DNA from: Blasia pusilla
Lineage: Eukaryota
Direction of reading: 5' to 3'
DNA: 64,000 nt
Assembly (NCBI GenBank): GCA_050084515.1
Contig: CM114271.1
Span: forward strand, 46,686,001 to 46,750,000
Shown: in pieces, positions 16,453 to 54,705 of the stretch
How positions within the stretch are numbered: position 1 is the first letter of the stretch
Layout of the letters: each line of letters opens with the position of its first letter
The notes under the pieces: generated by a model
Told to the model about the DNA's origin: nothing
Database searches by the model: none
Seen by the model: the letters and a program-made list of their open reading frames with translations, nothing else
Translations under genes and position numbers: made by a program

Positions 16453-19400
16453 ATGCCTCCACCCGCATTGGCCCCTCGCGAAGGGGCCCGTGGGTCATCT
16501 AGTCGGGATACGAAATGCCCTTGTTGTCTCGAATTCTTCACTCGTTCAGGAATTCGGAACCACTTAGCGGCTTAACATCGTGACTTTGATAGATTTGGAT
16601 GGGTGGTTCCTCCAGTCGATCATGGATGCTCACCGGTGCTTCATGCATCATCGCCCCCTCTCGAGGCATGGGAGTTGTTGAGGTCCCACCTTGGCAGCAT
16701 CACGGGTCTCTTTGAGACCCGTTTTCCTTGCCCGAGGTTGTTTCATAGGATCCCCCATGCCATTCGGGATGAGCTTCGCCAGACTTTCCTCCTTTCCCTA
16801 TCTAGGATCGCGCTTGATCCTATGGATGAGCTCTCGTGGTATCTACTACTTCTGCTTCCATGATGGTATCTTCACTATACCAGAGGAGGGAAGACTGGCC
16901 ATAGAGAGCATCTGGCCCGATTGCGGCGCTTTCGAGGAGGCGATTGGGAGTCTCTGCAGAGCGAGTTTGTGGCATATACAAGAGGTAGCACTTCACTTGG
17001 TTTCCTAGCGGACGATCTTGTAGCAACCAGATTGCGACGATGTAGGACACTTGGGCAAGCCAGGGAGTACTCGAAAGCGGCTCGTGCGCTCCTCCCTATG
17101 GATATGGCTCCTCCTTCCGCTGTTACCATCGACGCCTTCCGGAGGCTACATCCTCGTCCAGTGGTTGACATCCTAACATTTGTACGTGACTTCCATCGTG
17201 ACACGACCTTATGCCTAGACGTATCCCTTTTTGCATGGGCACTCAGGGGCGTTCCCCTAGGATAGCAGCTGGAGGGTTGTCCGGTATGATGTATGAACAC
17301 CTTCGTGATTGCTTTCCCCCCGAGGACTCTGCTAGCGGCTTTTCCGAGTTACTTCAGGTTGCTTCTCACCTAGCTCAGGGGAGAGTGCCAACAACAATAG
17401 CCTAGGTATTGGGGGCGGGGCGACTTTTGGCATTGTCGAAGGAGGGTGGAAGGATCCGTCCGATCGCCATAGGGGAGGTGCTCTTGCGATTGGTGAGTAG
17501 CACTATCGCTTTGCAATTCCGTGAGGCTTTCCAGTCACATCTGAGTCCGAACCAGTTCGGAGTTGCCACACCAGCCGGTTGTGAGGCGGTAGCCTTAGGT
17601 TTGAGGGCTTATTTAGATATACATCATGAGTGGATGGTTCTCCAAGTTGATGTGGAGAACGCCTTTAACTCAGTGTCTCAGGCAGCTATCTTCACGGAGC
17701 TGAGAGACGTAGGGGGTCCTATTGCGAGTCTGATTCCCTTCGTGCATGCTTTTTATGGGCCTCCCTCGGCTATCTATTTTCACCATGGTACGTTCGAGGA
17801 GGAGGTCACGGTCTTGGAGTCTGTTACCGGGACGCGTCAGGGTGATCCCTTGGGTGGTGCATTGTTTGCTTTGGCTCATTATCGAACGGTTCTTTCTACG
17901 GTGGAGGCTTTCCGGGGTTGCATTTTCCCTTCGTTGGCAGATGATACTCATATTGCTGGCCCTGGAGACCTGGTCGTTCTTGCATTTGAGCACTTTTCAA
18001 CACAATTGGCACGTGTCGGCCTCGCGGTGAAGGTGGGAAAGTGCAGGGCTTGGTCTTTATTAGACTTGTCAACGGATATTCATTTACCCGAAGATTTTTT
18101 GACACCTGTTGGAGGGCTTCGCGTCTTGGGAGTCCCACTCCGGAGCCATGACTTTGTATCGAGTTTTATAGCGGCGTCTCTTACCGAGGATCTTCTCCAT
18201 GTCGACGATCTCATGAGGATTGGTGACCCTCAAGTAGGTTATGGAATCCTCTCGTCATGTTTTGCTCGTAGACCTGGTTATCTGTGTAGAATCGAGTGGG
18301 CGTCTAGCCATATTTCTTCCTTGTATAGATCCTTTGATAGAAAGATCATGCAAATGTTTGGGGATCTTCTAGGACCCGGCTCATTAGAGTGGCCCGCGGG
18401 GGAGTTAGCTTGTAGACAGGCTTCTTGGCCGAGTGCCTTGGTTGAGTAGGTCTCATAGCGACCGAGTTAGTGGCATCTTCACCTGTTTTAGGGAGTTGGG
18501 CCACTGTAGCACCCCTCCTTTGCTCCCAATTTTTGGGCAGGGATAGATCGCTACTTTTACAGTACTTTTCCCAGGTTGAGGATGGTCTTTTCCCACTTCA
18601 GTCTTCATTCACAGCTTGTAGAGACTCCCTTCTTGTTGAGGCTAGAGCAGTTCTTCCCGCTTTCTCTTCCCTAGTTACCTCCGGACAGTCTGGGCTCCAA
18701 TCTTCTTTGATAGAAGCCCACTTTGATGTATTGTTTAGAGCTAGTATGTCGGACGGGAATATCCCCATGGAGGTTCGGGCCCGTATTCGCTCTTGCTCTG
18801 GAAAGGGGGCAGGCTCATGGATGGGGGCTCGTCCCCTCATCGTGGCTTTCCGCATCGCACCACTCACCTACACTACAACGATGCGGTTCCGACTGGGCTG
18901 CCCCAACCATTGGTGATTGGTTTGACACATTACGAGTGTCGCCAGAGTCTGGATCCACTTGGTGTGCATTTGGCACGATGTCCAGTCAGGGGTGAGAGGA
19001 TAGCCACTCACGATGCAGTGCGGGGTATTATGTTCTCTATTGCTCGGGAGAGTGGATTCCATGTACATAGAGAGAGGCACTACTCCATGCGGGATTCCCT
19101 CATCCGTGCTGATCTCTACATGACATGCGAGTCTGAGGTGGTGGTAGCAGATGTTGTAGTGACGGATCCTACGTGGGAGGCGGTGCGAGCCCAAGTGGTG
19201 GCACAAGGGAGATTGCTACAAGGAGCGGCGGCGGCCGCGGTCAAGAAGACCCACATTTATAGTCGACTTCATGACGGACATCGATTGATCCCCCTAGCCA
19301 TTGAGATGTACGGGGCTATGGGGAAGAGGTTTGACTTGTTCCTTATGGATTGCGCCCATCATCTCAAGTCGATAAATGGGTTTTCCTTAGCCACAGCGAT

Positions 19401-21268: not shown

Positions 21269-24200
21269 ATGGGTGTCGGAGCTGGAGCTGGAGAGAATGG
21301 GCAGCGTCAAGTGTATTGCATTGGCGCTATGGATACGAAGGCGGTTGATATTAGATATGTCGCAGATGCTCTTGGGTCGGCTCTATCGAAATTCTTGCCC
21401 GCTTCAAAGCACGTGAGTGCCGGTGTTGGCAGATCGTCCATCATCTTGCTGGATGTGTGTGGTTATCATGCTCGTTCTGAGAGAACATGAGTTAATTTTG
21501 AGGACAGTGTAGTACAAGAATGATGTCACGGAGACAGATCGTCTCTGAATTGGATCATCGCACGAGCTCGAGCTCAATTTCGAATCTTCCGATTTCCCAT
21601 ATTCGATGATCGAAGTCGCTGTCCTGTAATGGAATAATGAAAAAGAAATCTCCTTTTCTGACGTGGAAAAGGAAATTTATAAATCACAAATTCCACTGAA
21701 CCGTTGCTCCGTCTTGTAGCATGGAAGTTGATTCTGTGAGGGTGGAAGGATGCTTTGGTTTAGTCGGGACTAGTCTAGAGTTCTTCCTTAGTTCAACTCG
21801 ATAACTTGTGAGCTACTTTCTCAAATTGCATGGACAGTGTAGCGCATTTGGGTACCGAGTTGAGGTACCGGCTACAAGTTCTCTGGTACTCAGATTGCCA
21901 CCTTCCTGGCGCCTCTACATGCTGTCAGTATGTGCTGCAGCTACTCTTTAGTCTAAGAGATACCTTTAAAGATTAAAGTCTGATTATCCATTACATTCAC
22001 GAGAAGTCCTGCTACACGAAGGAATCGAGTGTGGATCCCCTGATAAGCAAAGTGGGCCTCAACAGAAGATACCGTCCAGTAGAGTCAGCTGGGTAGTCTC
22101 ATCGTTCTTGAATGCTTTGGTGCACGGGAGCTATGGTTCAACGTTTTAAGGTTCAACAGGTTCAAGCTGTGATTGTGAACAGTAGAAACCGTCCAGTGAA
22201 GTCAGCTGGGAAATCCCAGCGTCCTTGAATGCTTCGGTGCACGGGAACTATGGTCTTGACGTTTTAAGGTGGGTCGTGCAACAGGTTCAAGTTGTGATAG
22301 TGGACATCTCTACAGCAAAATCAAATCACAACAAACCAGAAGTGTTGTGCACGAAAAGAGAGGAAGTCCTGCGTCACCACCCTGACATCACGAAGAGATC
22401 GGTGGCTGCTATTCCCAGTGACAGGGGAGCGGCAGTGCAACTTATGAGTGAAGCCCTTGTTGAGTTCCTGAAATGTCGTCACTCGGAAGGATCTTTACTA
22501 GGTGCCATTGGCTTAGGAGGCTCTGGAGGGACTTCTATGCTTGCACCCGGTTTAAGAGCCATGCCATTGGGAGTTCCTAAAGTGTTGGTCTCCACTGTGG
22601 CCAGTGGAAATACAGCACCCTATCTTGAATCCTCAGACCTTAATCTAGTTCCTTCAGTGGTTGATGTGGCTGGCTTAAACAGTATTAGTCGAAAAATATT
22701 GGCGAATGCTGCTGCCTCTTTGGCCGGCATGGTGGCTTGCCAGGTCGAAAACGGATTGAAAGGGGAGGACACGGACAATGTTTCTGTTGGATTGACAATG
22801 TTCGGAGTAACTACATCTTGTGTGACTGCCGTGCAGAAGCAATTAGCAGCTCGTGGGTACGAGCCGATTGTGTTCCATGCCACTGGGAAGGGTATGTTGG
22901 TCGATTCTGTGTCTGAGTATTGAATTTCATTTGTTTCTGACAGATTTACGGTACATTTCTGGCCCAGACTCGTCCAGTAGAATGTTCACAGTGATCCGCC
23001 TGAACCATACTTAAATGACTCGCTGATAATCGATGTTCAATCTTTGAACAGGAGGGCAGGCTATGGAGGGTTTGGTGGAGCAAGGACTTTTACAGGTTTG
23101 TAGCACCCCTCTTCTCAGAAGTTGGTTCAGGTGAGAGCCTCAGATTTCTCGAGGAGCTATCCGAGGGCTGCTTGATGAACAGCTGCAGGATTAGTATGTT
23201 CATCAGTGTACTGACTGATTACAGAGTGAGAATGACTGAATGCTTGAAACCGTACTAAAAGGAGAGAATAGCAAGGAAGAAGGGAAAATAAGGCAGTCTT
23301 TACCAAACATCTACCCCAGCCCTGCAAACATAGAATCCTTTGTCCATGGATTAGTGAGGAGATGAGAAGGAAAGGAAGGCTTGCAATCAGATAATGACCA
23401 TCGAAAAAACCTTCACAGTCCAAGTTTAATGGGAATTATGTCTAGCAGAAGGCATAAGCTGGTAAATGTTTGGAAGAAGTAAAGGCGAATCAGGTTTCAC
23501 AACTGTCGTATTTTCATTTAAATCTTGTTATTGTTGGTCCTTATGTCATCCTGTCAGGGATGGTTCACCAAAAATGAGTCAGACCCTGTCTTGCCTCATC
23601 ATGTGGCTTATGGTCAGACAATCTGTTGTCATAGAGAATTCAAAGAGATGCTTTTGATTTCAGGGGGTGATTGACATCACAACGACAGAGGTCTGTGATT
23701 ATGTGGTGGGGGGCACAATGCCTTGCAGCAGCACTCGATTTGAGGCATCTTTGAACCGCCAAATCCCTCTGGTATTGAGTGTTGGTGCACTGGATATAGT
23801 TAACTTTGGAAGCTTGGATACTGTACCATCTGAATTTGCTGACCGACATCTTCATATTCATAACGAGCAGGTAAACCTGTTAGGCTAGGATTCCATTTCA
23901 TTCACATTAACCGTCTAATATCAATTCACTGAAGGAACAGTGTGCGTGGAATCTTTTCTTAATGTGATGCTAGTGTTGCATGTGTATTTTCTAGCCCCAC
24001 AGTGTAATACTTCGTCAATGAGGATCAAATTCTAGTCGCACAAACCTGAGAAACTTTAGCCTGTAAGACTAATTCATAGGAAATCAGGTGACTTTGATTG
24101 ATCTTTTCCAAACTGAAAATAATACTTTGCTGAGATCTATTTATTCTTATATTTTCGTCACTATTTCCAGGTAACTGCTATGCGGACCAACGTGGAAGAG

Positions 24201-27200
24201 AATCGGAAATTTGCACAATTCATTGCCCAACAACTGAATAAGTCAACTTCTCCTGTGCGTGTTTTACTGCCAGAGAGAGGAGTATCTGCATTGGATGCAC
24301 CAGGAATGCCGTTCTATGATCCTGAGGTGACGGGAGCTCTTGTACAAGAATTGGAACGGGCAATCCATCAAACTCCAGAGCGTAAAGTAAGATTCTTTGA
24401 CAGGGAATAGATATCTCCCTTCATCTGAGATTATGGGTGCTGTTTAGGGTTTAGTTGAAAGGCTTTGAATGATTCGTTTCTATGGACAAAGTAGCCTTAG
24501 AGCTTCTCCAATGCCTTTTAAATCAAGTGGAAAATTGAATAACAATCAAAATCAAGATGCTATCTCTCTCGTATCTTCAATGATCACCTGGGAATTTCTT
24601 TCTGAGAGCAAACCAGCATGGCCATCTCGCTGTTATTCAATGAAGATGTTATTATGTCAATGGGAAAGAAATCTTCTCGAGGTAGATTTCCAATACAGAA
24701 CGTAACTCATGTACTCCTGATATCTGGAGGTTATGTGGAAATTGAGCGACAGGTTCTTGACTCTTTTAAGGAGATATTGGTCAGAAGGCATCTGACAGAG
24801 ACTGTTGCAGGCTTCATATGTTAAGTCTCTCATGTAAAAGAACTTTGTACAAATGCCACTATAGTTTCTCTAATTTGTGTCCCCGGTTTAACTGGAAATG
24901 ACAGGTGATTAGACTGCCCTTCCATATAAATGATCCTGAGTTTGCTGAAGCACTCGTCTCAGAGTACTTGGATCTTACAAGTTCCTCAGTCACAAACCTG
25001 GAAGAAACAGTGTCTCAGAGTACATCTTCAGGTGCAAATCATAAAGCAGAGCAAGATTCTCACTCACCATCATGGGATACTGCATTTTACGATACCAGGT
25101 CCCAAATACAACATTTTCCAGGTGAGATTGTCTGCCTATGCGTCTGTCTTCTCTGTTGTAACAAAATTCTGGGCTGATCCCCAGAAACTCTGCACTGGTG
25201 CTGAATATGGTAAGTGCTCAGATTATATGAGAGGATCTCCCTTCCTCGTGTGGCCCTTTCTTCACTTTTATCCCTTTGACACTTGTACCCGACACTTGCA
25301 TTGTCCAACAAGGGCACAAAGTCTATGGCTACAAGGCTACAACAGGAAATGGAGCATGGTCTCTCCATTGCCATTTGCTCCAATAGCTCCTCTTATAATC
25401 ATTCTGCTAACTGATGCCTTCCGCAAGAACTATTGCATGATTGAGTAGTTTTTTTAGGGCTGTCAAACTATTGTGTACCATACGTCCCTAGATTAATGGA
25501 TATTTGGGAGTTCAAAAGAGCCTTTCCCAGACGGCAAATATTTTTATTCAAAAGAGGATTTCCCACATCTCAGGGCTCTGTATCTGGACTCATGATCAGA
25601 ACTAAGAAATTTGGCCACCTTTTTATTTTCGTGTCTGAGAATGAAGCAACTGATTTACTGCCCACAGGGAACCAGGAGGATTCTGAGACTTCAAAATTAC
25701 CATATTGGCCGTAGTTAGGAGTCTAAAATGTGGCCGATGAGTCAAATCCTGTCTCTGGATATGACGATCAGTGGATCACACGCTGGGAGTATTGGAAACA
25801 CTTATGTTCTTTTGGAAATATGGCCCAGGAACGATGAAAAGATATGAATCTACACTGGGAAAAATGCGGAGGCAGATCTCAGCGGGTATTCCAATCATTG
25901 GAGCTGGGGCAGGAACTGGCATATCAGCAAAGTTTGAAGAACAAGGAGGGGCAGATCTCATTGTTATCTATAACTCAGGACGCTTCCGAATGGCTGGAAG
26001 AGGATCTCTGGCTGGTCTCTTGCCCTTCAAAGATGCAAATGCAGTTGTGCTGGATATGGCAAACGAAGTCTTACCTGTGAGCAAAAAGCCCCTTTTCCCG
26101 TGAGCAATTACTGCGTTCAGGTGGATACATGTTCTTGAAGTCCTGGACATTGCTCATCTTGGATTTGTGTATGGCTTCCTGGGATTAAGGGACGTGCGGA
26201 TGCATCCTGCGCTATCTCAGGAAGATGGACTTGAAGGTTTGCCTAGTGACAAAAGGGCATAAGAAAAGTACTCCCTGGTTGAATTTGGTCCATTCTATTG
26301 ACATCATTGTCTCTTGGAGATTGGTGTAGGTGGTGAAAAACGTACCAGTTTTGGCAGGAGTGTGTGCTACGGATCCGTTCCGCCAGATAAGCCGTTTCTT
26401 ACGTGAACTTGAAAGCATCGGATTCTGCGGCGTGCAGAACTTTCCAACTGTTGGTCTATACGATGGAAATTTTCGTCAAAACCTTGAGGAAACTGGGATG
26501 GGCTATGGGTAGGGTGCCCCTTATCTGATTTCACCGAACTTGCATGTCGGCCTGGTGTTCTTATGCTTTTGGTTTAATTGAGACCACATTCCAACAGCTA
26601 TCGGAAGAACACTGACAAGACTTCCCAGCAATAGATACAACCGGAAGTTATGTTTGAAGTTTGAAGCTAATCAGGAAGTTTGAACTTTTGGTTCGTGTGG
26701 TAGCCTGGAGGTCGATATGATTCGGCAGGCGCATGCCATGGGTTTACTTACCACCCCATACGCATTCAACGTAGCAGAGGCCCGTGCTATGGCAGAGGCC
26801 GGTGCCGATATTGTGGTTGCCCATATGGGACTGACGACAGCCGGATCTATAGGAGCTCAAACGGCAGTCTCACTCGACAAGAGTGTAGAACTTGTGCAAG
26901 CCATTGCCGATTCTGCCAAAAAGATCAATCAACACGTCATTGTACTTTGCCATGGAGGTACTCCCTGTTTCGCCATCGAATTTGCAATGTGTGAAATTAC
27001 TTCAACATCGCTTGTAAACAATCATTTTGTTCAGAAACTACTATCGCAGTTTGATGCGGATACTGCGAATTAGCAGCATTTGTTAGGAACCTCCTACTTC
27101 TGACTGGGATAAGTTTTCACGTTTGGTAGGTCCGATCTCGGGACCTAAAGAAGCCGAGTACGTATTGCAACGTACACAAGGAGTGCATGGGTTCTACGGT

Positions 27201-27284: not shown

Positions 27285-29150
27285 GTTTAGGGATCGGATT
27301 CAGTGAACATTCCTTGTTCCATGAACTCAACACAGGATTGCAGAATGAATAAAAGGACCACTTGAGACAAGCTACAGGATTCAAAACATGACCTCTTCAT
27401 CGTAAGTGACTGGATCACTTAAGAGTTCACAATCCTAGCAAATTCCATTATAAATTCTTCCCGCGACTACTAGTTTTTACTCTCCTTCTGGCCGCTGGAC
27501 AGGTTGTCGAGTCGCTTTTCAAGGCTTTCGCAATAATTTGATCTTCCAGTTCAGGATACAAACTTATTCCCATCAGTTCCGTTAAATGTGTTGGCAGCAC
27601 ATTTATTGCTCGTCTGCACTCTTTCTCTACACTCTAATTGTGGTTCCTGCGTCAATTACACGGACGATTCACGAGGGGAAGTTGTACTGGTCGTAGATGT
27701 ATACCTTCTTTGTTGTCGGTGCGTTGTCCATGTTGCCCACCTGATATTGTGTTCCTCCCGGCAGCCAAAAGTCTCAAACTATGCAGGACCATGGGCAACA
27801 ATGGAATGGAAACTTGGTCTTATCTTCCGCAGAGCGAAGTTACCACGCTTGCAGTGGGATTCCTATCGTCGCCAATCTCAAATCCAATTGGAACTCACGA
27901 TCGTTACCAGTTTGACTGTCGACTGGATGCGAACATGTTTTCCTCTCCTCTCATCCCTTACACCGCTAACCGGCTAAACATCGTTTGGGACAGAACGCTC
28001 TTAAATGGCGTTGCTACGTAATCACTTGAAGAAAGTCTGGAGCGCTTACAGCCTGACATTCGTCACCTCGTGCGATATCTGTGACCATATATTCAACGAC
28101 ATCGCAGTTCTCACGCATGTGTGCCTAGGACTTTCATATCGTTTCGCGTTCTCCCCAAGGAGGCAAAGTCCACGGACCATGCTCTAAAAGAAGAGAAGAA
28201 AGCTCAGGAATCTAAACTCTTCGTCGCCGCTACCTTTAAAAGAGAAGAAATAGTCCACGTACATAGACTACTTGTCGTCTCGGTAGCATATAAGAGACGA
28301 AACCCACGAGAGCCGTGATAACCTCGCAAAAGAGACAGTCACGCACATCACCTTTCGTGGTAGAAAGAATTAAAGATAGAACTTAGAAAAGGCTTACTTG
28401 TCAATGCCGGACGGCAGATTACCTCCAAGCTCAAGAAAGGTATGCCACGCCATGAAGAACGTGAAAGTTCTGCAACGATTCGGGCCAGCAAAGGGCGAAA
28501 CACAGATTCTTTCGATTGCCTTTCGTTTCTCTGACACGATTCCTCCGATTCTGGCGCGCCTACTTTGACGCACATTTTGACAGCAGTCTCTATAGACTCT
28601 ATTCAAGAGATTCTTGGTTGATCACGGACAGTAGGCGGCGTCAGACAAGACGCGAGCAGATATGCCAGCGCAGCAGCTGGGCGTCATTGTCGGTATTTGA
28701 ATTTTGAAGTTGGAAGGAGGTCAGCCGAGAAGATTACTTTAATAGAAAAAATAAATAAACTGTGTTAACTGGCTGGTCGCCGAATGGAAGGCGGGTTTCC
28801 ATTAATTTTTTTAAAAAAATTAGGAAGTAGTGGAAGATTAATGACGTTGCATACAAATTAAAATAAAATTTGTCCGTGACTTGTGAAATATTTTTTATAT
28901 GATTATCATGTGTCAAACATATAGGTATTCGTAAATCAAGAAGGCATTTTCCCATAATAATATAGATTTCACAATAATTTTTTAGATTTATTTAGAAAAA
29001 GATGAATGAATAATTGTTATAGGTTGTCGAAATATAGTTTTCCAACGCGATCGTCTTTGAAATAAGCTTGCGTATATGATTTGTAACATCCATGATTAAG
29101 ATCTGGCATGCGATTGGAATGGAAGGATCGTACGGAAAAGCAAGGAAGTT

Positions 29151-29286
29151 TGTCGTGCGCATACATATCGCTACACAACATACATCGTTGGTCACATCTA
29201 CGCCACACAACACCGATCTTCCCCACACACGGGTCGATCCACACATGTACAAAAATCAACTCATACATATACATGGAGATCACACA
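29151..29286. repeat. Repeat A (136 bp), direct repeat of 29770-29905
   Basis: TGTCGTGCGCATACATATCGCTACAC...GGAGATCACACA versus TGTCATGCGCATACATATCGCTACAC...GGAGATCACACA. Confidence 0.95.
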
Positions 29287-29288
29287 AC

Positions 29289-29767
29289 AAAAATAAAGAG
29301 TAGTAAAAATGACACACCCGGCCTAAACTCCACTCCTCAATCTACACCGGCATATCGAGCCTCGTCCACCCTGTGTTATCAAGGAATCCGGATGCTAGCA
29401 CCCTAGTCCTATCTCACACACATACAAGGGAGGTGCTCCAACGACCCAACATGAGAAAGATGGCTTAGGAAAGCCATCTTCCTCTCTTATATAGGGTTGG
29501 GAAGAGCCAAAAGGCTTTTCCCCTAAAAATAGCCCTCCCCTTGATAACCTGCGCGCACAGGTTACCAAGGGCGGGTGACCTGGTCAACAAGTCATCTGGC
29601 TGTAAAAGACCTCAACATGAAAGTTGTCAGAAACGACGTTCCTGACGCAATGGACCTATTCTCAATCTCATCCGACACTGTGGGACAAAGTTACAATGAA
29701 GATAGTCCGCTGGCTTCTACGCCCTATCCACGATAGATCTCGGCCTATCGGTTACTCAGATGTGACA
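29289..29767. repeat. Repeat B (~479 bp), direct repeat of 37948-38426
   Basis: AAAAATAAAGAGTAGT...TCAGATGTGACA in both copies. This copy lacks the first TGT. Confidence 0.95.
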
Positions 29768-29769
29768 GC

Positions 29770-29905
29770 TGTCATGCGCATACATATCGCTACACAACAT
29801 ACATCGCTGATCACATCTACACCATACAACACCGATCTTCCCCACACACGGGTCGATCCACACATGTACAAAAATCAACTTATACATATACATGGAGATC
29901 ACACA
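29770..29905. repeat. Repeat A', directly downstream (minus strand) of the PPT AGGGGGGCGAT
   Basis: Second copy of A. Minus strand reads ...CTAGGGGGGCGAT|TGTGTGATC. Confidence 0.93.
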
Positions 29906-29983
29906 ATCGCCCCCCTAGTTGGCACTTGGATCCCCCCAACTCCAGATAGAAAATATCACATCTCTCTGACATGACCTACTACC

Positions 29984-30145
29984 CTATACACATCTCGAAC
30001 ACATCCATCGTCCCGTGGGAACCACATCAAGAGGGGGGGTCAGACATGACATATGCCACCCTCGAGAACAACCATCACATACCAACATGGTGGCTGCACC
30101 CCTCGCAGATCCGCACAACATACACCTCAAGCCTGCATGTACCAT
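29984..30145 (-). pseudogene. PHD finger at the C-terminus of integrase
   Basis: CMLCGSARGAATMLVCDGCSRGWHMSCLTPPLDVVPTGRWMCSRC is a complete C4-H-C3 PHD with the conserved W before the last Cys pair. Confidence 0.93.
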
Positions 30146-30325
30146 TGCCAAGCTCGGATCCACCGTCCCATCTACGTTCGGAAGATGACATGGCGCACAA
30201 TTGCGCACATGATCCTTCCAAACCATACAATCCCGTTCCTCCAACATGAGGACTCCGGTTGGTAATACCTCGCGCACACATAGGATCGTGCGCCCCGCAG
30301 TGACATCTAGCGTCGTGGGTACCGC

Positions 30326-33056
30326 CTACTGTAAATACACGTAATCTCCACGATGAAACCTCCTAATCCCTGGACGATAACCTCCTCCACGAATGGTCGC
30401 GTACCTCAATGTATCTCTATGCGAGGCAGTAGCTAAGTTCTCAAAGGCCATAGGCATAACTCTACGAAAAACTTTTGCCCTCTGAGAACATGCTTGTACC
30501 CACACATCTGGATCATCAAGATCTAACACCTCCGCCATGTCACGTCGAATCGCTGTAGGTAAATCTGGCTCTCTCCCAAAGAGCAAAACGTACGGTGAAA
30601 ATGACGACAAGGATGCCTGTCGACTAAAGCGATAACGCATAGCCAACCATAGCAACTGTAGATCCCACTCCCTCAACTGTCCCCGCCGCAAGCCATACTT
30701 GCGCAATCCTCTCTTCATCGTCTGTACCACTCTCTCCGCCAACCCATCCGCCTCAGGATGATCTCTGGACGTGGTGCGGTGATCTATCAGCGCCTTATCA
30801 CATAAGGCCTGAAACTCTCCCCTGAACTCGGTACCCTGGTCAGTCAACACCTCCGCCGGTGCACCAAAGTGACTAAGCACACGATCTAGAAACGCATAAG
30901 TTGTTCCCTTGCTCACCTTGTCTGGTAGTGCCACCAACTCTATCCACTTGGAGAAATGCTCCACCATGACCAACACGTACCTATGATGACGTCCCGTCAA
31001 TGGCAAAGGTCCCGCAAAGTCTAAACTCCACCGATAACCTAAACCTATAATCGGCAAAGGATGTAACTGCGGAGTGGGAGCATTGAAGGATGCTCGACTC
31101 TGTCACATACCATACATCCGCCACAAACCGCTGTACCCCAATATGCATGCCGCGCCACCAAAAGATTGAACCCGAGTAAGTGTAAACGCTTTACTCCGAA
31201 ATGTCCCAACTCCTCATGGGCATGTCGTACTACACGTGCTTGCTGGGAAGGATGAGGTACCACTCGTATCTTACCATCTCCCCATACCCGCAAAATGTGA
31301 GTCTCCTCCCCCCGAACCTCTTGGCTCTCTCAGAGGATCCGATCCGCTCCCTAGCACTCATGACTCGCAATGACGCCGGTGCGCAAGAACTCCACAACCT
31401 CCATGTCGTCATGGATATCACGACCACCACCGCCTCCTCACTAACCTCCGGATCCAAAGACTCATCATCCAACCCCACCACCGAGTCATCACCGCGGGTG
31501 ACCGCCATAGTCAACCAACAAAGATAGGCAGATGCATGCCAACCGGGCACCATCTCCTCATCACTCTCTCCGTGCCATCGAGCTCTTGTGTCGTCTCTCT
31601 GACTCGGACATGGGTTACGACTCAACCCATCCGCATCCTAGTTCAGCCGACCTAGCCTATGAACCACCTCCAAACTCATACTCATGTAGTAATAGAGCCC
31701 ACCTCGCAAGCTTTCCTGTAAGCTTGTCGGACTCCATCAACCACCTCAACGGCTGATGATCAGTGATAAGTGTGAAAGGGTTGCCGAATAAATAGCACCT
31801 GAAATGTGCCACGGCCCACAATGCAGCCAAGCACTCTCCCTTGTAGGAGCTGTACTTTGCCTCTGCAATGTTGTTCGATCCGCTCGCGTAAGCCACAACG
31901 AACTCCCTCTCCTCATCATCCCTCTGAGTAAGCACTGCTCCTAGACCCAACATGCTCCAATCCGTATGTAACTGGAATGGGCGACCCCTAACCGGTCTTT
32001 GTAAAATGGGTGAGGACGTCAACCTGTCCTTGAGCTCCTGAAATGCTCGCTCTTGATCATCTCCCCACAACCAAACCTAATCAAGTCTCGTCAACAAGGT
32101 CAAAGACTTTGCGATCGCACTAAAACCCTTGACATACCGTCGATAGAAGTTTGCCAGTCCAAGAAATGCTCGAACTCGACTCACATCTGTAGGGCGTGGA
32201 ATCTACGCAATAGCCTCTACCTTCGTCTGCTGAACGCCTAACTCACTCGGGTATATGGTGTGTCCCAAGTACTCAATCTGCTCCTGAAAGAATCTGCACT
32301 TGGCTGGATGTAACTTCAGTCCATGTAACTGCGATCTCCGAAACACCTCCTCCAAGTGTCGCTCATGCTCCTCAACTGTGGAACTGAAGATAAGAATATC
32401 ATCTATGTAACATTGTACAAAATCCAAGCCAGCCAGTATCCTATCCATCACTCTCTAAAACTCTGCAGGCACGTTCTTCAACCCAAATGGTAAGAACCAC
32501 CACTGATACAAGAAATCTCTCCCGAATCGATCTATCCCCCAGAATGTTGTCTTCTCCGTGTCCTCCAACCTGATAGGAAGCTGATGATAGCCAAAGATGG
32601 AGATCTAAAAAGCATCAAGATCTTTGCATGCCCTACCGCATCAAAGATCTCCTCAGGAGTAGGCATGGCGTACCGATCTGACCTCGTCTGTCGGTTGATA
32701 GGACGGTAATCTCCACACATCCGCCTATCCGTCCAATTGCCATACATATCCTTCTTTGCCGGCATGACTGTGGCAGATGCATACTCCCCATGTGATAACT
32801 CCACAAGTCGTGCCTCCAACAAGTCCTGACTCCTGCTCTAAATCAAGGCTCGCTCCATATCAGAATACCTGTAGGGTCGACATTTAAAGATCGGCGTATC
32901 ACTAGCCAACTCAATCCGTATCCCGGGACCCTTCTGCGTACCCAAGTCTCTCATACTGAAGGCAAAACAACTGACATGCCCTCTCAGAAACCTATGAACT
33001 CGCCGTCGCTCTCCTCCTATCAACTTGAGACCTATCACAGGCTCCCAAGTCTCCAT
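30326..33056 (-). pseudogene. RT, RNase H and integrase of the MTase-Gypsy (fragmented)
   Basis: RT: YASATVMPAKKD..RMCGDYRPIN, YIDD. RH: LHTDWS..GLGAVL, ECLA..WAVAHFRCYL, TDHQPL. IN: HAHEELGHFG..CMVC, SLDFAGP, LTDQGTEF, GLAERVVQ. Confidence 0.93.
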
Positions 33057-33369
33057 CGTGACCTCACTCGGAGAGGACGCAACCTCCGCCTTTGGTTGCT
33101 ATGTAGCAACCCTAGCCACCTCCGCAACAACCACTCCACTCTGACCTCCTACACCATGCTCCACATCCTAAAAATGAACATGTGCTACTCTAGCCGCCTT
33201 CGCACTCTCTGCTTGAACGACGTCCCAGGAAGTCCATGGGTGCCTATCTCTCCTCGTCTCGCCCCCAGCCAATGCCTATACAGACCCTATAGGCAATGGT
33301 CCAACTCATGGATGTGATGGCATGGATGACACTCGCATCCGTCTGTGCTCAGCCATACCTAGGCTGACT

Positions 33370-34320
33370 ATCCATGTGAGACAGTTGAGGTCCATCGCCT
33401 GCCCCAACACCTGTCTCCGGGATGCCTCAGTCATCCCTGGCACCGCCGTAGTACCGGTAGTGAACCCCATGGCGCGCTCGCGCTCATCTGCTGTAGGCTC
33501 CTCCAATGCTCTGGTCACCTCATCCCAAATCATGCCTAGCCCTCCCTGAGGAAAGGCACGGGATGCTGGGAAGCTCACCAACGTAGGTAAGGCTGCCCTC
33601 AACTCCCCCACCCTATTGGCCATGGCCAATGGTGGTCTATCATCCCGTGTCACCACCTGAGATCGATGCCCTAAGCCGAAAATAGCATCCACTGTGAGAT
33701 GTGGTGCTCTTTGGACTCCACCGTATGCTTGACGTGGAGTGACATATCATGACGTATCATGTTCGTCCACCACAGTCGTGGACGATGGGCACGTGACCCA
33801 ACTCTCGCTGCATCTAACAACACAGCAGGTCCCAACTAGGACCTCACCTGATATACACTCGTCATCACACGTGCACGAGTGTCCATTGGAGAACATGCCG
33901 GCATGTTCTCCAAAATGTACGTTGGAGAACAAATGTGACTCTCCTGCAAGTGTCGTACTACTTACAGCATCTCCCAAAACATCCCTGACCTCGGATTCTG
34001 CAATCCAAATCCTCGGCCAGCTGATGAATGATCCTGACATGGCCATCCAACAATCACCAAATGAATGGTGCCAACTCTATGCATATCCTGTGCCCCCACC
34101 AAAGAGATGTCGGCGGGTAGCGTATGCTGATATCCCCGTACTGCAGATACCAGCAACAACTCAGGATACCTTTGGACCAATCTCGCCACGTGACGTAATG
34201 ATACTCGCCGCGCGGTCTCATCTCTCTCCACATAAAGGTACTGATGCACCCGTATGCCCGCCTGCAATAGTGCAACCAATCCGGTGCTAATCCCTTCAAA
34301 GAGATCTAACACCCTAACAC
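33370..34320 (-). pseudogene. C5 cytosine DNA methyltransferase domain, DNMT3-like (disrupted)
   Basis: Motifs in linear order: I RVLDLFEGISTG; II YVERD; IV GWPCQD; VI YILENM (~33900-33920); VIII LDAARVGSRAHRPRLWWTN (~33760-33815); IX ERERAMGF..GTT; X RRQVLGQAM. Confidence 0.9.
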
Positions 34321-34701
34321 CCTCCTCTGGGCATTGCCACACAACAGGTGTGGTATCCAGTGGGGTCAACCTCTCCACTCCAAGAGCCCGATCGCCATGT
34401 GACTCTTGCTGCTCTGGGATAAAAACATGACTCCACGCCTGCCTCACGAGGTCGTCGGCACTCCTCTGTAGCTCTCGAGTCGTACCCCACAATGGTGAAG
34501 AGGCCTCGCCAACATGGGAAGAGACACCCGCCATGGCTTGTCTCTCCGTGGGACTATCCGCTACTGGGACATCCTCCGCATGTGCGTTCTCCTCCAACTA
34601 CTCTCCTGGCCAACTAACACTACTTGTGAAAGTTGCCAACGTGGTCACAGACTCGCCTCGTGATCGACCACCTCGTCCCGCAAACTGCACGGGTAACTGA
34701 C

Positions 34702-35118
34702 TCATCTGGCCAGGATGGCAGTTAGGTGACGGCCAGGATGGACATCACCTAACCGCCATCCTGGCCGATAAGCAACGGTCTCCTCCCAGAAGTCAATGAT
34801 GAATCCTAGGGGATATAACACTGTACTCCCCACCAACACATCGTACGACTCAACTGGTGTCTTAATCGCACGTGTGCGCACCATAGCACTATCCGTCACA
34901 TGCTCTGGCTAGACTCTGACAACAATCTCCTGTCGAGTCATATACTGAGTGGGTGATACGCCCCCAATCGAGGTCTGTATCTGGAAGGGACAAGGCTCAA
35001 TGTCGGCCTTCCGTAACCCCAACGCTAAACACGCCGCCTTCCCTAACATCAAGGGTTGCGCTCCCGAATCAAGTAGGACATGCTGCGGGTGATATACTGT
35101 CACCGTCGGACTAACCAA
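34702..35118 (-). pseudogene. Retroviral-type aspartic protease
   Basis: VLLDSGAQPLMLG ... YDVLVG, with one in-frame stop at 34909-34911. Confidence 0.8.
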
Positions 35119-35985
35119 GCAAAATACTCAAGCTCGGTTATCCAGTAACACTACTCCAGGTGTCACCACTGCTCGTTCTATGGCCAGTCGAGCTGGCATA
35201 TCTACCAACTTCGCCGCCGCCGCATGCCATGACTCTGTGGGGAACGTCCCAAGCACCGGCTCTGAGGGCAAGTCCACCACCTTCTCAACTACCTTTGAAC
35301 AAGAAGCAATCATCTCTCCACGCTCACACAACATGGCGGCCAACCGGAATACCTCAGCTGGTCCAACCCCCAACGTCGCCAACTCTATGGCGGAAAATAG
35401 CGGAGTCTGACTCACTCTGGTGGCCACCTCCAACACTATGGTCGACACTGACTCCACTCGAGCCGGCATAGGAGTTGTCACTCCAACTCCTCGTGACGTC
35501 GACGTGGAGTGTGCCGAATCAGAGGCACTTTGCTGGTCGTCGAGGCACCATCGATGGTGTGTGTAGTGCCTCCGACAATGTGAACGACTGTGGAACCCTG
35601 GCCTGCCGCCCATTGGTCCCCTCTGGTGGATCAATCTCAACTCCACCTCTCGATGGCTCGGTGCCTCTCGTAGCACCCCGAGTCACCACTGCAGCTGCCT
35701 CAACCTGGGCTACACTACACATAAATCCCATACTGGCGAGATCCTCACCCGGGTCAGGGTAAGAGGTAGAAGTTGGAGTCACACTAGCTGCTCGCAGTTC
35801 TGTGCCTTCCCTAAGCTGCATCATCGTCATGGCAGCAATCCTTGGCTCCAGCCGATCGATGCATGAGAGAAGTGCCGGTTCTGGTGCTCCTGCTCCATCT
35901 CCTCTGGCTGGTGGTGGTCCTCTACCACCACGTCCAGGAAAAACTCCCCGACCTCCTCTAGGACGACCGCCCCCAGGCCCTCGGC

Positions 35986-37065
35986 CTACCTCTGGACGTG
36001 CCCCTCAGCAAAGGTCAAAACATCTATCCCTAGTGTGACCATATATGTGGCAATGGTCACATTGGTGCTCTGGTGGGGCCATCCTCTGTGGCTCCTGAGA
36101 AATCGGAGGCACTGGTGGCCCTCTCCCATGCTGAGGGCAGTCTCTCTGCCTATGGGCCCCTCCACACGTCCAACAAGACCACATCGGTCCCTGCTGGGCA
36201 ACATATGTAGGTACGGTCGTTGCCTCATAGGCTCACGGTACCCGCCCCGCTCTCTAGGCACACATTGGCCCGCTCCCATGGTATCGGTGCTTCTTGTGGG
36301 TGGGCACTGTGGGGTCACCGTCGCTCGTGGACCCGTCAACTCTCGAGAAAATCCAGCGGTCACTACCTGCTCCTCACTCATGTTGAGCTCAATATGCTCA
36401 GACAACTCAAAGACCACCTTCAATGTGGGCTTCACTGTGTGAATCAACACCACATCTCGGACTCTCCTCCGTAGTTCTCGGTCCAGAACCCCGTACCAAT
36501 ACTGGACCGGCTGTGCCTCAGTCACTCCAAACGTAGCAATGATCAACCTCCTCATGCGCGTGAATGCCTCTCTCCGACTCTCACCCGATCGTCGCTGAAA
36601 ATCCTGTAGACTCTTTAGCTTGTCGGTGCGTACGCCCTGGTAGCTCTTCCCCAACTGTCGGAAGAACTCCACTATGGGGCTAAAGCTGGGTGGCCCTCTA
36701 CCACCAGAGGTCTCTGCCACATCGCCTGTCTCACTGCCCTCCTCTCCATCTAGTCTCCGGGCTGATGGTGTGGGTCTCTCTCCTCTCACAATCCCATCAT
36801 ATGCCTCGCGACCACTAGTGGACAGATACCCTGGAGCCCAATACATCCTCCAAGCATCGATCTCTAATGAATATAGTGATCGAAACTCCATGTAGTCATC
36901 CATCGGAGGACCCTCCAAGTGCTGGAACAACCCCTTCCATGCCATGAAAGGGTTGAACCGTGTCGGGGTCCGTATCTCCTGGAAGTCGCACCATGTGTCG
37001 AACTCCTGGATAAAATCATCTAAGTCGATGGTGCCCACTACACCATGTTGTCCATCTCCTGCCAA
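35986..37065 (-). pseudogene. Gag with two zinc knuckles in a shifted frame
   Basis: 359-aa ORF at the 5' end of the element. An alternative frame gives CWTCGGAHRQRDC (~36140-36175) and CDHCHIYGHTRDRC (~36020-36061). Confidence 0.8.
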
Positions 37066-37947
37066 GTACTACTGTCTCTGTGTGTGATCTCGTCACCAGA
37101 CCCTGTGTCCAATGATGACGAGCCAGCCACAGATGGATGTCAAGGTAGCTCCTCACTGGTAACCCCTCGGTATCTCACTCCACTCCGTGTCACACCACTA
37201 CTACTGCTCGCACTACCCTGTTCTTCCAAACCCTAGAAGAACGCCGTGATGACAAACCCTGTCTCACCCGCTCAAGCACTCAGACTCACCGAGAGTCTCC
37301 CACACGCCTCACTAGCTCACCTATGCTAACATCAATCCCATGATGACATACCCGGCCTCACGCACGCTCAACACTCGGGCTCACCATGAGCCTCCCAACT
37401 GACTCACCTAACCTAGCGACACTCTCTTGGGTCATACACATGACCCCTACTTGGCAACCGCCGTATATCCACCAACATGCTACAGACGAAAAGAATCTAC
37501 ACTCGTCACCATCACTGCACCCACCTAGCACCAGCTACTACCCGATACCGAGCACTCTCAATCACACACGACAAGTGCGAGAAAAGGGATGCGCGGAGGG
37601 GGGGAGGGGGCGCGCCGTCACCGCCCGCCGTCTGTCCGCGACCGCTGACCTAAACGCCCGTTAGCGCCCCCGGCGGCTGCAAGCCCTAACTCTCTTTTCT
37701 TCTCTGTCTCGACACCCACACTCGCGTACACCCGACGCTCCACCGCACATTACACTCGGCTGCTGTCCCGCGTCAATCCGTACCAGCAAAATCTGAGAAA
37801 AATGGACAGCGCTTCCGCCCACGGCCTTCCAAACAGAAAAATGACAAACACCCGCAACACACGCGTCTCCAAGGGCTCTTGACCAAGGCAACTCACTTGC
37901 CTACCTGCAAACAAGGAATTCCCACCAGCCCCCTGACATCTTTCTCA

Positions 37948-38426
37948 TGTAAAAATAAAGAGTAGTAAAAATGGCACACCCGGCCTAAAACTCCACTCCT
38001 CAATCTACATCTGCATATCGAGCCTCGTCCACCCTGTGCTATCAAGGAATCCGGACGCTAGCACCCTAGTCCTATCTCACACACATACAAGGGAGGTGCT
38101 CCAACGGCCCAACATGAGAAAGATGGCTTAGGAAAGCCATCTTCCTCTCTTATATAGGGTTGGGAAGAGCCAAAAGGCTCTTCCCCTAAAAATAGCCCTC
38201 CCCTTGGTAACCTACGCGCACAGGTTGACCTGGTCAACCTGGTCAACAAGTCACCCGGCTGTAAAAGACCTCAACATGAAAGTTGTCAGAAACAACGTTC
38301 CTGACACAATGGACCTATCCTCAACCTCATCCGACACTGTGGGACAAAGTTACACTCAAGATAGTCCGCTTGCTCCTACGCCCTATCCACGATAGATCTC
38401 GGCCTATCGATTACTCAGATGTGACA
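37948..38426. repeat. Repeat B' (5' terminal repeat) with minus-strand TATA box at 38150-38156
   Basis: TGTAAAAATAAAG...GATGTGACA. Minus strand reads TATATAA..25 nt..ATCTTTCTCA. Confidence 0.93.
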
Positions 38427-38953
38427 AGTTCAACGACGCTTCTTCTAATTCGTCCTACTTAGGGCATGTCATGGGGAGCCTTTGGCATCTCCCATCCAAT
38501 TCCTTGGGATGTTCTGTGGAAAATGCCCGTCGTGTCCAACAGTGTATACAGCGAGATACGCACACTATGTGTTGCATAATCGTACATATAGATTGGTGAA
38601 GAACTCGCGTTGATCCACAGAATGCATGCCAACCATTTGTAGGATATCGTAGCAAATACATATGGACCATCCCAGAGTTGATTGTCTCCTCCCGGTACAC
38701 ACAAGTGCGGAAGAGTTCACGTCTAGCTAGGTATGAGAGGCGCATGTTTGTCATCTTGGGAGTCATTTTTCATGTTTGCAATTAGTTTATGAGTCCACTT
38801 CATACAAGTCATTTGCAAAATATTTGCGAGCCTAATGCGAGTTGACACTAGTTTGCGACTGTTCCTAATTTTTCATGTAAGTTGCAAGTCTTGTGTATTT
38901 GCGAGTCCAAAGAGACGCAAAAGACTTGACACATCACATTGAGATTTGCAAGT

Positions 38954-39119
38954 TTTCATGCGCATACACATCGCTACAAGTTTTCTCTATATATCTCTTA
39001 ATAAGACAAAATGAAGGGGAAACGCCTCAACAGGTCATCCTTAATCTCCTAAGGTTGTCTTCCCATATCCTTGAAGGTGCTCCACCAAAACTTGTCGATC
39101 TATCCTTAAAGATGTGACA
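38954..39119. mobile_element. Short relic with an A-like left end and a B-like right end
   Basis: Starts TTTCATGCGCATACACATCGCTACA (cf. A' start) and ends GATCTATCCTTAAAGATGTGACA (cf. B end). Confidence 0.55.
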
Positions 39120-40712
39120 GAATGTACCTCGTAAATTACTTGCAAAATGCAAGCAAACACACTTGCAAACAACAAAACCTTAGCCATAAATTTTGTAATG
39201 GCCTCCAAACCTCTATTTTCCCTTCTCCTCCCAACTTTTCAAGACTCCTCTCCTCACTTTGCAACTAGTTTCTTTCTTTAGAGGAGCTAAGTCTTGAATT
39301 TTTTTGGTATGGTTTTTTTTTGGATGTTCAAGGATATGTAGATGAATTAACTTCATAGTATTAGATTTTTTTTCAAAAATTATTATTTCTAAAGTACAAG
39401 AAATGAAGGATACCAAAAAAAAGAAAGCAAAGGCATCTCAGAGAAGAAACTAGAAGGAGCCAAAGCCCTTGTGAAAATGTGTTTCATAGTCCCAAAAATG
39501 AGTCCAAACTAACCAAAAGAGGAGAAGAAAACAAATGCTTTGCGATTGTAGAAGACCATTACTTGGACTCTTTGCTTTGCAATTGCTTTGTGAATATCTT
39601 GCGAGTGAGTTGGAAGTCAATTTTTGTGACTATCAAAAGTTGGAAGAACTGTAAAGTACTCATAAAGCTAGAAAAAAAACATCATTTTTTTACGAGCACG
39701 TTGTGAGCCTTCTGCAACAAAACTACTAGTATATTGCAAGAGTAATTTGTGAGTACAAGACTCATAATTTTGAAAAAATTCAAGTCCTATGAAAATTATA
39801 CTATGTCTATACTACTACTAAGTTGTGTCTACTACGACTCGCAAAATGGCTACAAATGTAGTAGTAGAACCATGAATATGCGTATTTTATCCAACATGGT
39901 GTTCTAGGCCGAATTCGTCTTGAACACATTTATATTGATCAAGAGCCGCTTGCAATCGGACAAGTTGAGTCTTGTACCCACTATTCCAAACTATCAACCT
40001 TAGTTTTGCAATGATCTCCAGTGTAGGCAAAAAATCTAAATACATGAGTGCAAGGGCAAGATAGTTTTTTTTTCCAATGGCCCTGCAAGCATGTAAAACG
40101 CATGGGTTGAATTTTTTTGTTGCTTGATGGATTTGTATTGGATCTACAAAATCTCTAAAAGAAGAGTCCATTTTAGCTTGGTAAATATGTAAAAAGAGAA
40201 AGTTTTTGGTAAGTTTGAAAGTTGTGAAGTCTTTTTCTAAGTTGCATCCTCAGTTTTTTTGGATATAAAAGATAGCACGAACGCCTTGGTCATCAATCTA
40301 TGATGCCCATATAAGACCAAGGGGGAAATTTTTTGTCTATTTTTAATTAAGTTCTTAGAGAAGGTAGGATCATAAAGGGGAAATAATTGAATTGTGAGGT
40401 GGGCTACATCTCTTATAGAAATAATCTTAAAGATGTTGAGATTTGTAGCTTATTACCAAAATTACCATGGGGAGAAAATTAAATTGTGAAGTTATTCATG
40501 ATTTTTTTGGAAATCAGAATTCTTTGCATAGGAATATATGGTAAGAACTTATAGGGGTAGTTCACCCTGTCATATCTCTTGTAGTTGAATGAAGAGTTTT
40601 CGCCCAATGTTTTGGGGGAAAGAAGATATCAGGCCTAGTAAGTCACAGATGATTTATTGAGGAGTAGGGTAGTCTATAAGGGCAAGTTTCCTTTTGGTTT
40701 GACCCCTTTTAG

Positions 40713-54700: not shown

Positions 54701-54705
54701 ATTGA
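51702..54705 (+). CDS. NRT1/PTR family (NPF, likely NPF8-type) peptide/nitrate transporter, exons 51702-51852, 51960-52177, 52804-53369, 53805-54705
   Basis: [30 protein letters not shown] (ExxER), [88 protein letters not shown]. Confidence 0.95.

Follow-up and report, generated by a model that had tools for sequence, protein, structure and literature searches.

The window analysed here, a stretch of 64,000 nucleotides from the land plant Blasia pusilla (GenBank assembly GCA_050084515.1, contig CM114271.1, positions 46,686,001 to 46,750,000), carries on its minus strand a decayed Gypsy-type retroelement (Table 1). Reading through the element in its coding direction, we observed regions for gag, protease, a DNMT3-like methyltransferase, reverse transcriptase (RT), RNase H and integrase, with the PHD finger that is the subject of this analysis closing the polyprotein. 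The order typical of Ty3/Gypsy elements (gag, protease, RT, RNase H, DDE integrase) is contained in this series, and the same order is found in two intact relatives, the protein P0150 and the locus L032. Judged from its sequence, the element is a dead retroelement of the Gypsy-DNMT3 type, whose integrase has this PHD finger as its C-terminus.

A preliminary description of the window had placed an intact C4HC3 PHD finger at 29984-30277, and we find it there, on the minus strand: the range takes in residues 17-113 of a 113-residue open reading frame (ORF) and the codon at which the polyprotein naturally stops (29984-29986). The ORF scores 43.7 bits against the Pfam family PF00628, where the cut-off is 24. 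The zinc ligands follow the canonical spacing, C-x2-C-x11-C-x2-C-x4-H-x2-C-x14-C-x2-C. The finger can be called intact in sequence only; it retains all eight ligands together with D84, G89, L95, P97, P103 and W107. On the minus strand its ORF shares a frame with the integrase-core ORF (31102..30329), from which it is parted by a single TAG (30328..30326) at a position where intact relatives have a sense codon. When integrase core and finger are read together, they are 77% identical to the protein P0122 over 369 residues. The finger stands at the integrase C-terminus, in the place that the chromodomain takes in chromoviruses, as the preliminary description had claimed.

In the AlphaFold model of the C-terminal ORF, the mean predicted local distance difference test score is 74, with values of 76-89 across the finger. 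Foldseek matches the model with a probability of 1.00 to many solved PHD fingers, the root mean square deviation (rmsd) being 0.8-2.8 for single-domain matches; among them are ORC1b bound to unmodified H3, at an rmsd of 0.8 over 47 columns, and BAZ2A bound to unmodified H3K4, at 1.8. The model also has an SH3-like domain of three strands directly before the finger, and there are weak matches to the Tudor-PHD folds of PHF1 and MTF2. Between the SH3-like domain and the finger we observed an N-C-A-P-C-H motif (residues 42-47 of the 113-residue ORF, ~30185-30202 on the minus strand), the second Cys of which (C46) is invariant in 48 of 48 sequences and which gives a weak Pfam match to a PHD-like extended zinc finger (E=0.0054). 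The motif may be an extra metal site or a pre-PHD element.

Table 1. Coordinates, strand and supporting evidence for the features of the retroelement and of the neighbouring chromovirus.
Feature	Position	Strand	Evidence or remark
PHD finger proper, C4HC3, residues 68-112	29990..30124	-	PF00628, E=2.7e-11
C-terminal ORF, 113 residues: end of SH3-like domain, NCAPCH linker and PHD finger	29987..30325	-	
Premature stop codon (TAG)	30326..30328	-	In frame with both the integrase and the PHD ORF
Natural stop codon of the polyprotein	29984..29986	-	One residue past the last zinc ligand
Whole element	38426..29151	-	Decayed Gypsy-type retroelement
Target-site duplication, 5' side	38427..38430	-	AACT on the minus strand
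Repeat A1, 5' terminal repeat	37951..38426	-	Starts TGTCAC
gag-like ORF, 360 residues	35989..37068	-	tblastn against L032 gag region, 25% identity over 275 residues; no Pfam match
CCHC zinc-knuckle stretch after the gag-like ORF	near 36008-36232	-	Different frame
Protease region, broken by stops	34705..35127	-	Aligns to protease of L032 ORF1 and P0150; 2 internal stops; no Pfam match
DNMT3-like C5 cytosine methyltransferase region	33309..34597	-	PF00145; two frames, stops; aligns to DNMT of L032 and P0150
TAG-CAA-CCA at the junction of gag-protease-DNMT and RT-RNase H-integrase-PHD	33093..33101	-	
Reverse transcriptase, broken	32206..33062	-	PF00078, E=1.1e-16 on 32206-32454; 75-79% identity to P0122
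RNase H	31660..32076	-	PF17917, E=9.1e-34
Integrase zinc-binding (HHCC) region	31048..31329	-	Frame differs from core; no Pfam match
Integrase catalytic core and SH3-like C-terminal part, 258-residue ORF	30329..31102	-	PF00665 (rve), E=4.5e-15
Repeat B1	29770..29906	-	
Repeat A2	29289..29767	-	
Repeat B2, 3' terminal repeat	29151..29287	-	Ends ..CGACA
Target-site duplication, 3' side	29147..29150	-	AACT
Chromovirus: gag, protease, RT, RNase H, integrase, chromodomain	~7467-11605	+	
Chromovirus integrase ORF	9710-11404	+	
Chromodomain	11408-11605	+	PF00385, E=1.5e-11

A protein search with the integrase-PHD frame as query, an X standing at the stop, matched 181 longer proteins, 120 of which were listed. 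PF00628 is present in 116 of the 120 matches listed, nearly all of them at ~99% query coverage. The sources named include Coleochaete scutata (69% identity), Klebsormidium nitens, Closterium, Volvox, Tetrabaena, Chlamydomonas eustigma and Haematococcus, and in the green-algal homologues (Volvox, Tetrabaena, C. eustigma and Haematococcus) the integrase is followed by the PHD finger. P0150 carries the domains in the order of the window element within one open frame of 2811 residues, while L032 and L035 each contain an intact ORF of 1047 residues that runs from RT through RNase H and integrase to the finger. A scan of metagenome contigs yielded 137 relatives, from which 80 loci were kept; 59 of these cover at least 360 of the 375 residues from integrase core to PHD. 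Among these 59 well-covered loci, integrase and finger lie in one frame in 40, all eight ligands are kept in 42, and five are free of stops. The finger is thus neither absent nor out of frame in intact copies, and the in-frame fusion to integrase on which the preliminary description had made its reading depend is present.

Across 48 aligned relatives, the eight zinc ligands are invariant (48/48), and D84, G89, L95, P97, P103 and W107 are nearly so. A C4HC3 regular expression matches 133 of 161 stored proteins; several of those missed are either truncated in the record or variant, having a terminal His or a changed first spacing. Five intact loci provided ten pairs, and in the seven of these whose synonymous divergence (dS) is unsaturated, the ratio of nonsynonymous to synonymous divergence (dN/dS) is 0.04-0.37 for the finger; the integrase core gives 0.02-0.14. 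By these comparisons, the PHD finger is conserved under purifying selection in the relatives.

The preliminary description had also assigned a DNA methylation writer to the same element. This is borne out weakly in the window copy, in which PF00145 scores 23.6 bits, just above the threshold of 22, and motifs I (DLFEG..G) and IV (GWPCQ) can still be read. It is borne out clearly in the intact locus L032, whose methyltransferase scores 51.1 bits against PF00145, keeps motifs I, IV and VI and has DNMT3A/3B/3C as its best solved relatives (E ~8e-8). We searched 160 proteins for such a domain by BLAST and with a hidden Markov model built from DNMT regions, and found a DNMT-like domain in 58. A further 46 are without RT, 55 are uninformative because their frames start 76-335 residues before the RT motif, and only one informative protein (P0050) lacks the domain. 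Among the 33 loci that extend for 4200 bases or more upstream of the integrase, 30 have DNMT ahead of RT. Motif IV has its Cys in all of 30 aligned DNMT regions, the preceding residue being Pro in nine and Glu in 19 (E-C instead of P-C).

Two arrangements can be distinguished. In the first, that of the window's group, the finger is terminal, the relatives ending 2-14 residues past it, and DNMT comes before RT. In the second, which is of chlorophyte type (P0033, P0045, P0052, P0102 and others) and whose group includes Volvox, Tetrabaena, Haematococcus and C. eustigma, the order is RT, RNase H, DNMT-like domain, integrase, PHD, and here, whereas the finger of the window element ends the polyprotein, an extension of 19-596 residues follows that matches no Pfam family. 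In a tree of 118 rows, every row of known arrangement sorts accordingly, although support at the basal split is no more than 52% and rooting was at the midpoint; the K. nitens protein P0115 groups with the terminal-PHD clade. We conclude that a predicted DNMT-like domain accompanies the PHD integrase almost wherever this can be assessed, and does so in two positions. The count of co-occurrences is subject to a bias, since the integrase that seeded each search came from an element with DNMT. The view that the finger is ancestral and independent of DNMT had rested on a precomputed Pfam column, with PF00145 in 10 of the 120 proteins listed, and was overturned by the direct search of the 160.

In L032 and L035, gag-protease-DNMT (1369 and 728 residues, respectively) and the 1047-residue ORF are separate frames in register, with one TAG between them. 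At this junction we observed TAG-CAR-YYA in the window (33093-33101, minus strand), in L032 (5083-5091) and in L035 (4661-4669), a sequence that we take to be a leaky-stop context of the tobamovirus type. P0150 has no stop at the junction. Programmed read-through at this site was considered as a family-wide trait and rejected, as no more than 2 of the 37 loci scanned have the exact motif.

Two complete long terminal repeats were not found in the element: its 5' end consists of repeat A alone and its 3' end of B-A-B, which makes a layout of split direct repeats, A1...B1-A2-B2. Repeat A starts with TG, repeat B ends with CA, and a 4-bp duplication, AACT, flanks the whole. The related loci L042 and L003 have the same split-repeat layout, with the 4-bp duplications CATA and AAGG, respectively; repeats were looked for in loci L022 and L062 and none were found. 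With TG..CA ends, and with 4-bp duplications in the window, L042 and L003, the insertion signature is of the integrase type. The insertion is old, because A1 and A2 are identical at 448 of 475 ungapped positions (94.3%), the differences comprising 20 transitions and seven transversions; B1 and B2 differ at six of 137 bases, all six being transitions.

The window copy is dead: where it aligns to intact relatives, it has 12 premature stops (9 TAG, 2 TGA, 1 TAA), and the frame changes at least six times along the polyprotein. We observed that its decay consists mainly of point changes, that related loci likewise have many stops and few frame changes, and that the residue aligned to a premature stop, where intact relatives agree, is mostly Gln or Arg. 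Deamination of methylated cytosine would be expected to leave such a bias in stops and transitions.

The closest described system is KnitGypsy-Dnmt3 of K. nitens (de Mendoza et al. 2018, PMC5890265), which that paper presents as having Gypsy domains, a Dnmt3 in Pol and, according to a figure legend, DIRS-like repeats. Like it, the window element combines the Gypsy domains with a DNMT3-like methyltransferase in its polyprotein and has direct repeats in a DIRS-like layout, A1...B1-A2-B2; the hosts differ, being a charophyte alga for KnitGypsy-Dnmt3 and a land plant here. The K. nitens protein KFL_009030040 (P0107) has DNMT before RT and is 56% identical to the window integrase over 76% of the query; it is a partial record that ends before the PHD. 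The main text and three supplementary files of PMC5890265 make no mention of a PHD finger, the figures lying outside this check. A 2026 preprint mentions 'streptophytes (Gypsy-DNMT3)'. In a literature search that left aside figures, the Craig 2021 thesis and Repbase, we found no text that joins PHD to DNMT in Gypsy elements or reports the family from bryophytes. We stress that the window element is a member of the known Gypsy-DNMT3 kind, here in a land plant, and that its components are known separately.

Chromoviruses likewise carry a small chromatin-reader domain after the integrase C-terminal domain, at the end of the polyprotein. Their reader is a chromodomain directed at H3K9me, whereas that of the window element is a zinc-binding PHD finger whose likely ligand is the H3 N-terminus. 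No chromodomain was detected by Pfam in the C-terminal ORF of the element, where only PHD families match, and its RNase H is only 28% identical to that of the chromovirus in the same window. REM1, attributed to Perez-Alegre et al. in 2005, is said to be a PHD-bearing Gypsy element of Chlamydomonas. The statement in the preliminary description that such elements are known in green algae is supported in print for Chlamydomonas: passages of PMC8557442 describe PHD fingers as accessory domains of Chlamydomonas transposons, and passages of Craig et al. 2022 (PMC9940879) describe Gypsy-7a_cRei, whose Gypsy polyprotein has a PHD finger like that of the window element. The authors of the latter propose that the finger influences insertion, and report in the same passages that intergenic insertions of Gypsy-7a_cRei are 2.6 times expectation. 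The comparison is by description only, the figure legend giving the order RT, RH, PHD, INT and naming no methyltransferase. Retrotransposon PHD fingers and chromodomains are treated as parallel, possible guides of integration in passages of PMC6673714. The Chlamyvir clade, first considered as a carrier of PHD fingers, was dropped from the comparison, as it is described as carrying a chromodomain.

What such a finger might read was approached through its nearest solved relatives. A phmmer search of the Protein Data Bank (PDB) gave first PHF12 PHD2, CHD4 PHD2, DPF3/DPF2 PHD2, KDM5A/B PHD1, PHF21A, KAT6A, AIRE PHD1, BAZ2A, ATXR5, ORC1b and UHRF1, with E from 1e-13 to 1e-6 for the readers of unmodified H3. 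The fold matches are the same set; several entries are, by their titles, complexes with unmodified H3 peptides, and we take the remaining best matches to be readers of unmodified H3 tails as well. The finger has in common with solved PHD fingers for unmodified H3 (DPF3 PHD2, BAZ2A, BHC80/PHF21A, AIRE PHD1, ATXR5, ORC1b and UHRF1) the patterns G-[WY]-H and P-x-G-x-W and the lack of a cage Trp; it differs in that their acidic K4-contact residues are not conserved in the window's subfamily. No ING, BPTF or TAF3 finger is named among the 60 PDB sequence matches listed. Readers with a trimethyl-lysine cage, such as ING2/BPTF, have a Trp two positions before the zinc-binding His, and that position is Gly in 44 of the 48 aligned relatives; the finger is accordingly predicted to be without an aromatic cage for trimethyl-lysine. 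After the ligands, the best conserved positions are M80-L81-L82, D84, P103, G105 and W107, which line the H3 groove in solved PHD complexes. The preliminary description had called the finger 'H3K4me0-type'. As a resemblance this stands, because of the Gly at the cage position and in keeping with the nearest solved relatives; as a specificity it does not follow, the acidic contact to K4 not being conserved.

The polyprotein of active members of the family consists of gag, protease, DNMT3-like methyltransferase, RT, RNase H, integrase and PHD. We hypothesize that the last of these would bind the N-terminal tail of histone H3, probably in the form unmodified at R2 and K4. Binding to H3 would tether the integrase and its complementary DNA to nucleosomes, and tethering would bias the landing sites of new copies, as the chromodomain does in chromoviruses. 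On balance we favour the reading that the finger tethers the integrase to chromatin via the H3 tail and so biases integration, although the preference is not a strong one. We infer three things here: that the finger binds H3, in which modification state it does so, and that it acts on integration and not on the methyltransferase. The finger appears tied to the integrase and not to the enzyme, because it stays at the integrase C-terminus while DNMT changes place.

Several observations weigh against this hypothesis. The window copy itself cannot act, because it is dead. Insertion sites with defined ends number just three, all with AT-rich flanks, and are uninformative on chromatin state. In AIRE, an acidic residue two after the second Cys contacts K4; the equivalent residue 73 is Ser in the window and, among the 48 relatives, D/E in 16, S in 12 and R/K in 14. 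The residue before the first Cys is mostly basic in the aligned relatives, and acidic clusters are seen in the K4-contact loop of a more distant algal group. A specificity for H3K4me0 is uncertain for the subfamily, because the acidic contact is not conserved and the residue preceding the first Cys is mostly basic. The likeness to readers of unmodified tails may mean no more than that canonical PHD fingers with a solved structure are most often of this kind. Finally, the near-constant company of a DNMT-like domain may leave room for a functional link to methylation.

Such a link is the core of a first alternative, in which the finger does for the element's DNMT3-like enzyme what the ADD domain does for cellular DNMT3: by reading H3K4me0 it would direct cytosine methylation or activate it. 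In cellular DNMT3A/3L, the ADD is a Cys-rich reader of H3K4me0, a composite of a GATA-like and a PHD finger, and lies directly N-terminal to the catalytic domain. The element resembles these enzymes in having a Cys-rich putative reader together with a catalytic domain of DNMT3 type; it differs in that a single canonical PHD finger lies ~1100 residues away from DNMT, behind the integrase. That the methyltransferase is DNMT3-like and has, in Pfam, no ADD or PWWP of its own is what the alternative would lead one to expect, as are a finger whose nearest solved relatives read unmodified H3 and a pairing of finger and DNMT-like domain that persists in two domain orders (58 of the 160 proteins, with a single informative exception). 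The pairing count, however, carries the bias from integrase-seeded searches, and through both arrangements the finger is fixed at the integrase C-terminus while DNMT moves. Moreover, RT, RNase H and integrase lie between the two domains, and so does processing by the protease, which we take from the general biology of the family. In the window, L032 and L035, a stop codon separates the DNMT part from the rest, and no ADD family is found among Pfam matches at E up to 0.01. We therefore consider the alternative doubtful. A functional pair could act inside the uncleaved polyprotein or between cleaved products, and we hold this extension to be equally tentative. The suggestion of the preliminary description that the finger guides the methyltransferase is unsupported, and the self-contained epigenetic module that it proposed is a minority reading: one domain is near the start of the polyprotein and the other at its end, with RT, RNase H and integrase in between, the stop codon parts DNMT from RT-RNase H-integrase-PHD in the window, L032 and L035, and no ADD-type family is among the Pfam matches.

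The same pairing can be given an evolutionary form, which we offer as a speculation of similarly low standing. The PHD finger and the DNMT3-like domain would be a reader and a writer anciently co-retained in a green-lineage Gypsy clade, and kept together through relocation of the methyltransferase, which stands before RT in the streptophyte type and between RNase H and integrase in the chlorophyte type. The finger would stand in for the ADD, and the element would methylate chromatin without H3K4 methylation, or insert into such chromatin and then methylate it. If this were true, the element would carry its own system of de novo silencing or camouflage, in a family that spans green algae to land plants.

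To return to the hypothesis of tethering via H3, it would need to be modified if the ligand of the finger were a tail with methylated H3K4 or some other mark, or else a host protein that is not a histone, so that new copies were steered to active or marked chromatin and not to unmodified H3. The PHD fold binds many ligands, and the fold alone does not give specificity; the acidic contact for unmodified K4 is missing in the subfamily. Passages of PMC9940879 report 25 insertions in untranslated regions and 10 in introns for Gypsy-7a_cRei. The cage-Trp position, however, is Gly in 44 of 48 relatives, and fingers of the ING, BPTF or TAF3 kind do not occur among the 60 PDB matches listed, and we judge this alternative improbable. 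It is more improbable still that the finger does not read chromatin and has a structural role, as a zinc module that helps the integrase C-terminus to multimerise, to bind nucleic acid or to remain stable, for although it follows directly on the SH3-like domain, with the conserved Cys/His motif NCAPCH between them, the positions best conserved after the ligands are those of the H3 groove.

Three raw-read RNA runs, bearing the species label of the best-matching DNA, were mapped on 28500-39500, where they gave 332, 348 and 346 reads. Only 13, 17 and 18 of these match at 99% likeness or above, and the reads derive mostly from other copies, because the rest match at 95-99%. The first mate lies almost always on the plus strand across 29968-33270, the bin of the PHD finger included (depth 3-9), and at three premature-stop sites of the window copy the RNA reads carry another letter. 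Relatives of the window copy are therefore transcribed, probably in sense, provided that the libraries are of the usual stranded kind. We also observed that reads pile up on repeat B2 (29151-29233), with loose ends that have other flanks, and that a joint from 39044 to 29153, near 39024-39044, is seen in 8, 31 and 16 reads, its shorter side being only 21 letters; the joint probably comes from other copies or from a short shared repeat.

Elsewhere in the window, a fragment at 4809-5204 and 5465-5531, which includes a short inverted piece, is related to the sequence that immediately precedes DNMT in the element (46% identity over 108 residues, 70% in DNA) and is probably a remnant of another family member. 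The chromodomain that the preliminary description had used for comparison (11429-11611) is real and belongs to a separate chromovirus on the plus strand; it shares a frame with the chromovirus integrase ORF, and a single stop cuts between them. Two Gypsy families with different readers, a PHD finger and a chromodomain, thus lie 20 kb apart. Regions 22186-27070, 52795-54702 and 17406-18446, all on the plus strand, hold intron-containing host genes (a UPF0261 plus PEP-hydrolase gene and a POT/NPF transporter) and a separate ORF with RT only, probably of a non-LTR element. One exon of the transporter is 74% identical to Riccia proteins, 71% to a Marchantia protein and 67% to proteins of Diphasiastrum and Ceratodon. 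The gene thus has its nearest counterparts in liverworts, and it marks the host as a land plant, most likely a bryophyte.

Retroelements that carry their own chromatin tools show mobile DNA negotiating with host silencing. The practical weight of the window copy is small, as it is a long-dead insertion whose components are known separately; the side result that we consider worth keeping is the regular co-occurrence of a C-terminal PHD integrase and a DNMT-like domain in elements of the green lineage. In a large clade that includes green algae, streptophyte algae and a land plant, it appears to be the rule that a single polyprotein holds a DNMT3-like writer along with a probable histone reader. 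Should the finger cooperate with the methyltransferase, it would provide a mobile counterpart to the ADD-DNMT3 logic known from animals. If it steers integration, the problem for which chromoviruses use a chromodomain would have been solved a second time and independently, and as both types of reader lie 20 kb apart in the window, their insertion landscapes could be compared in one genome.

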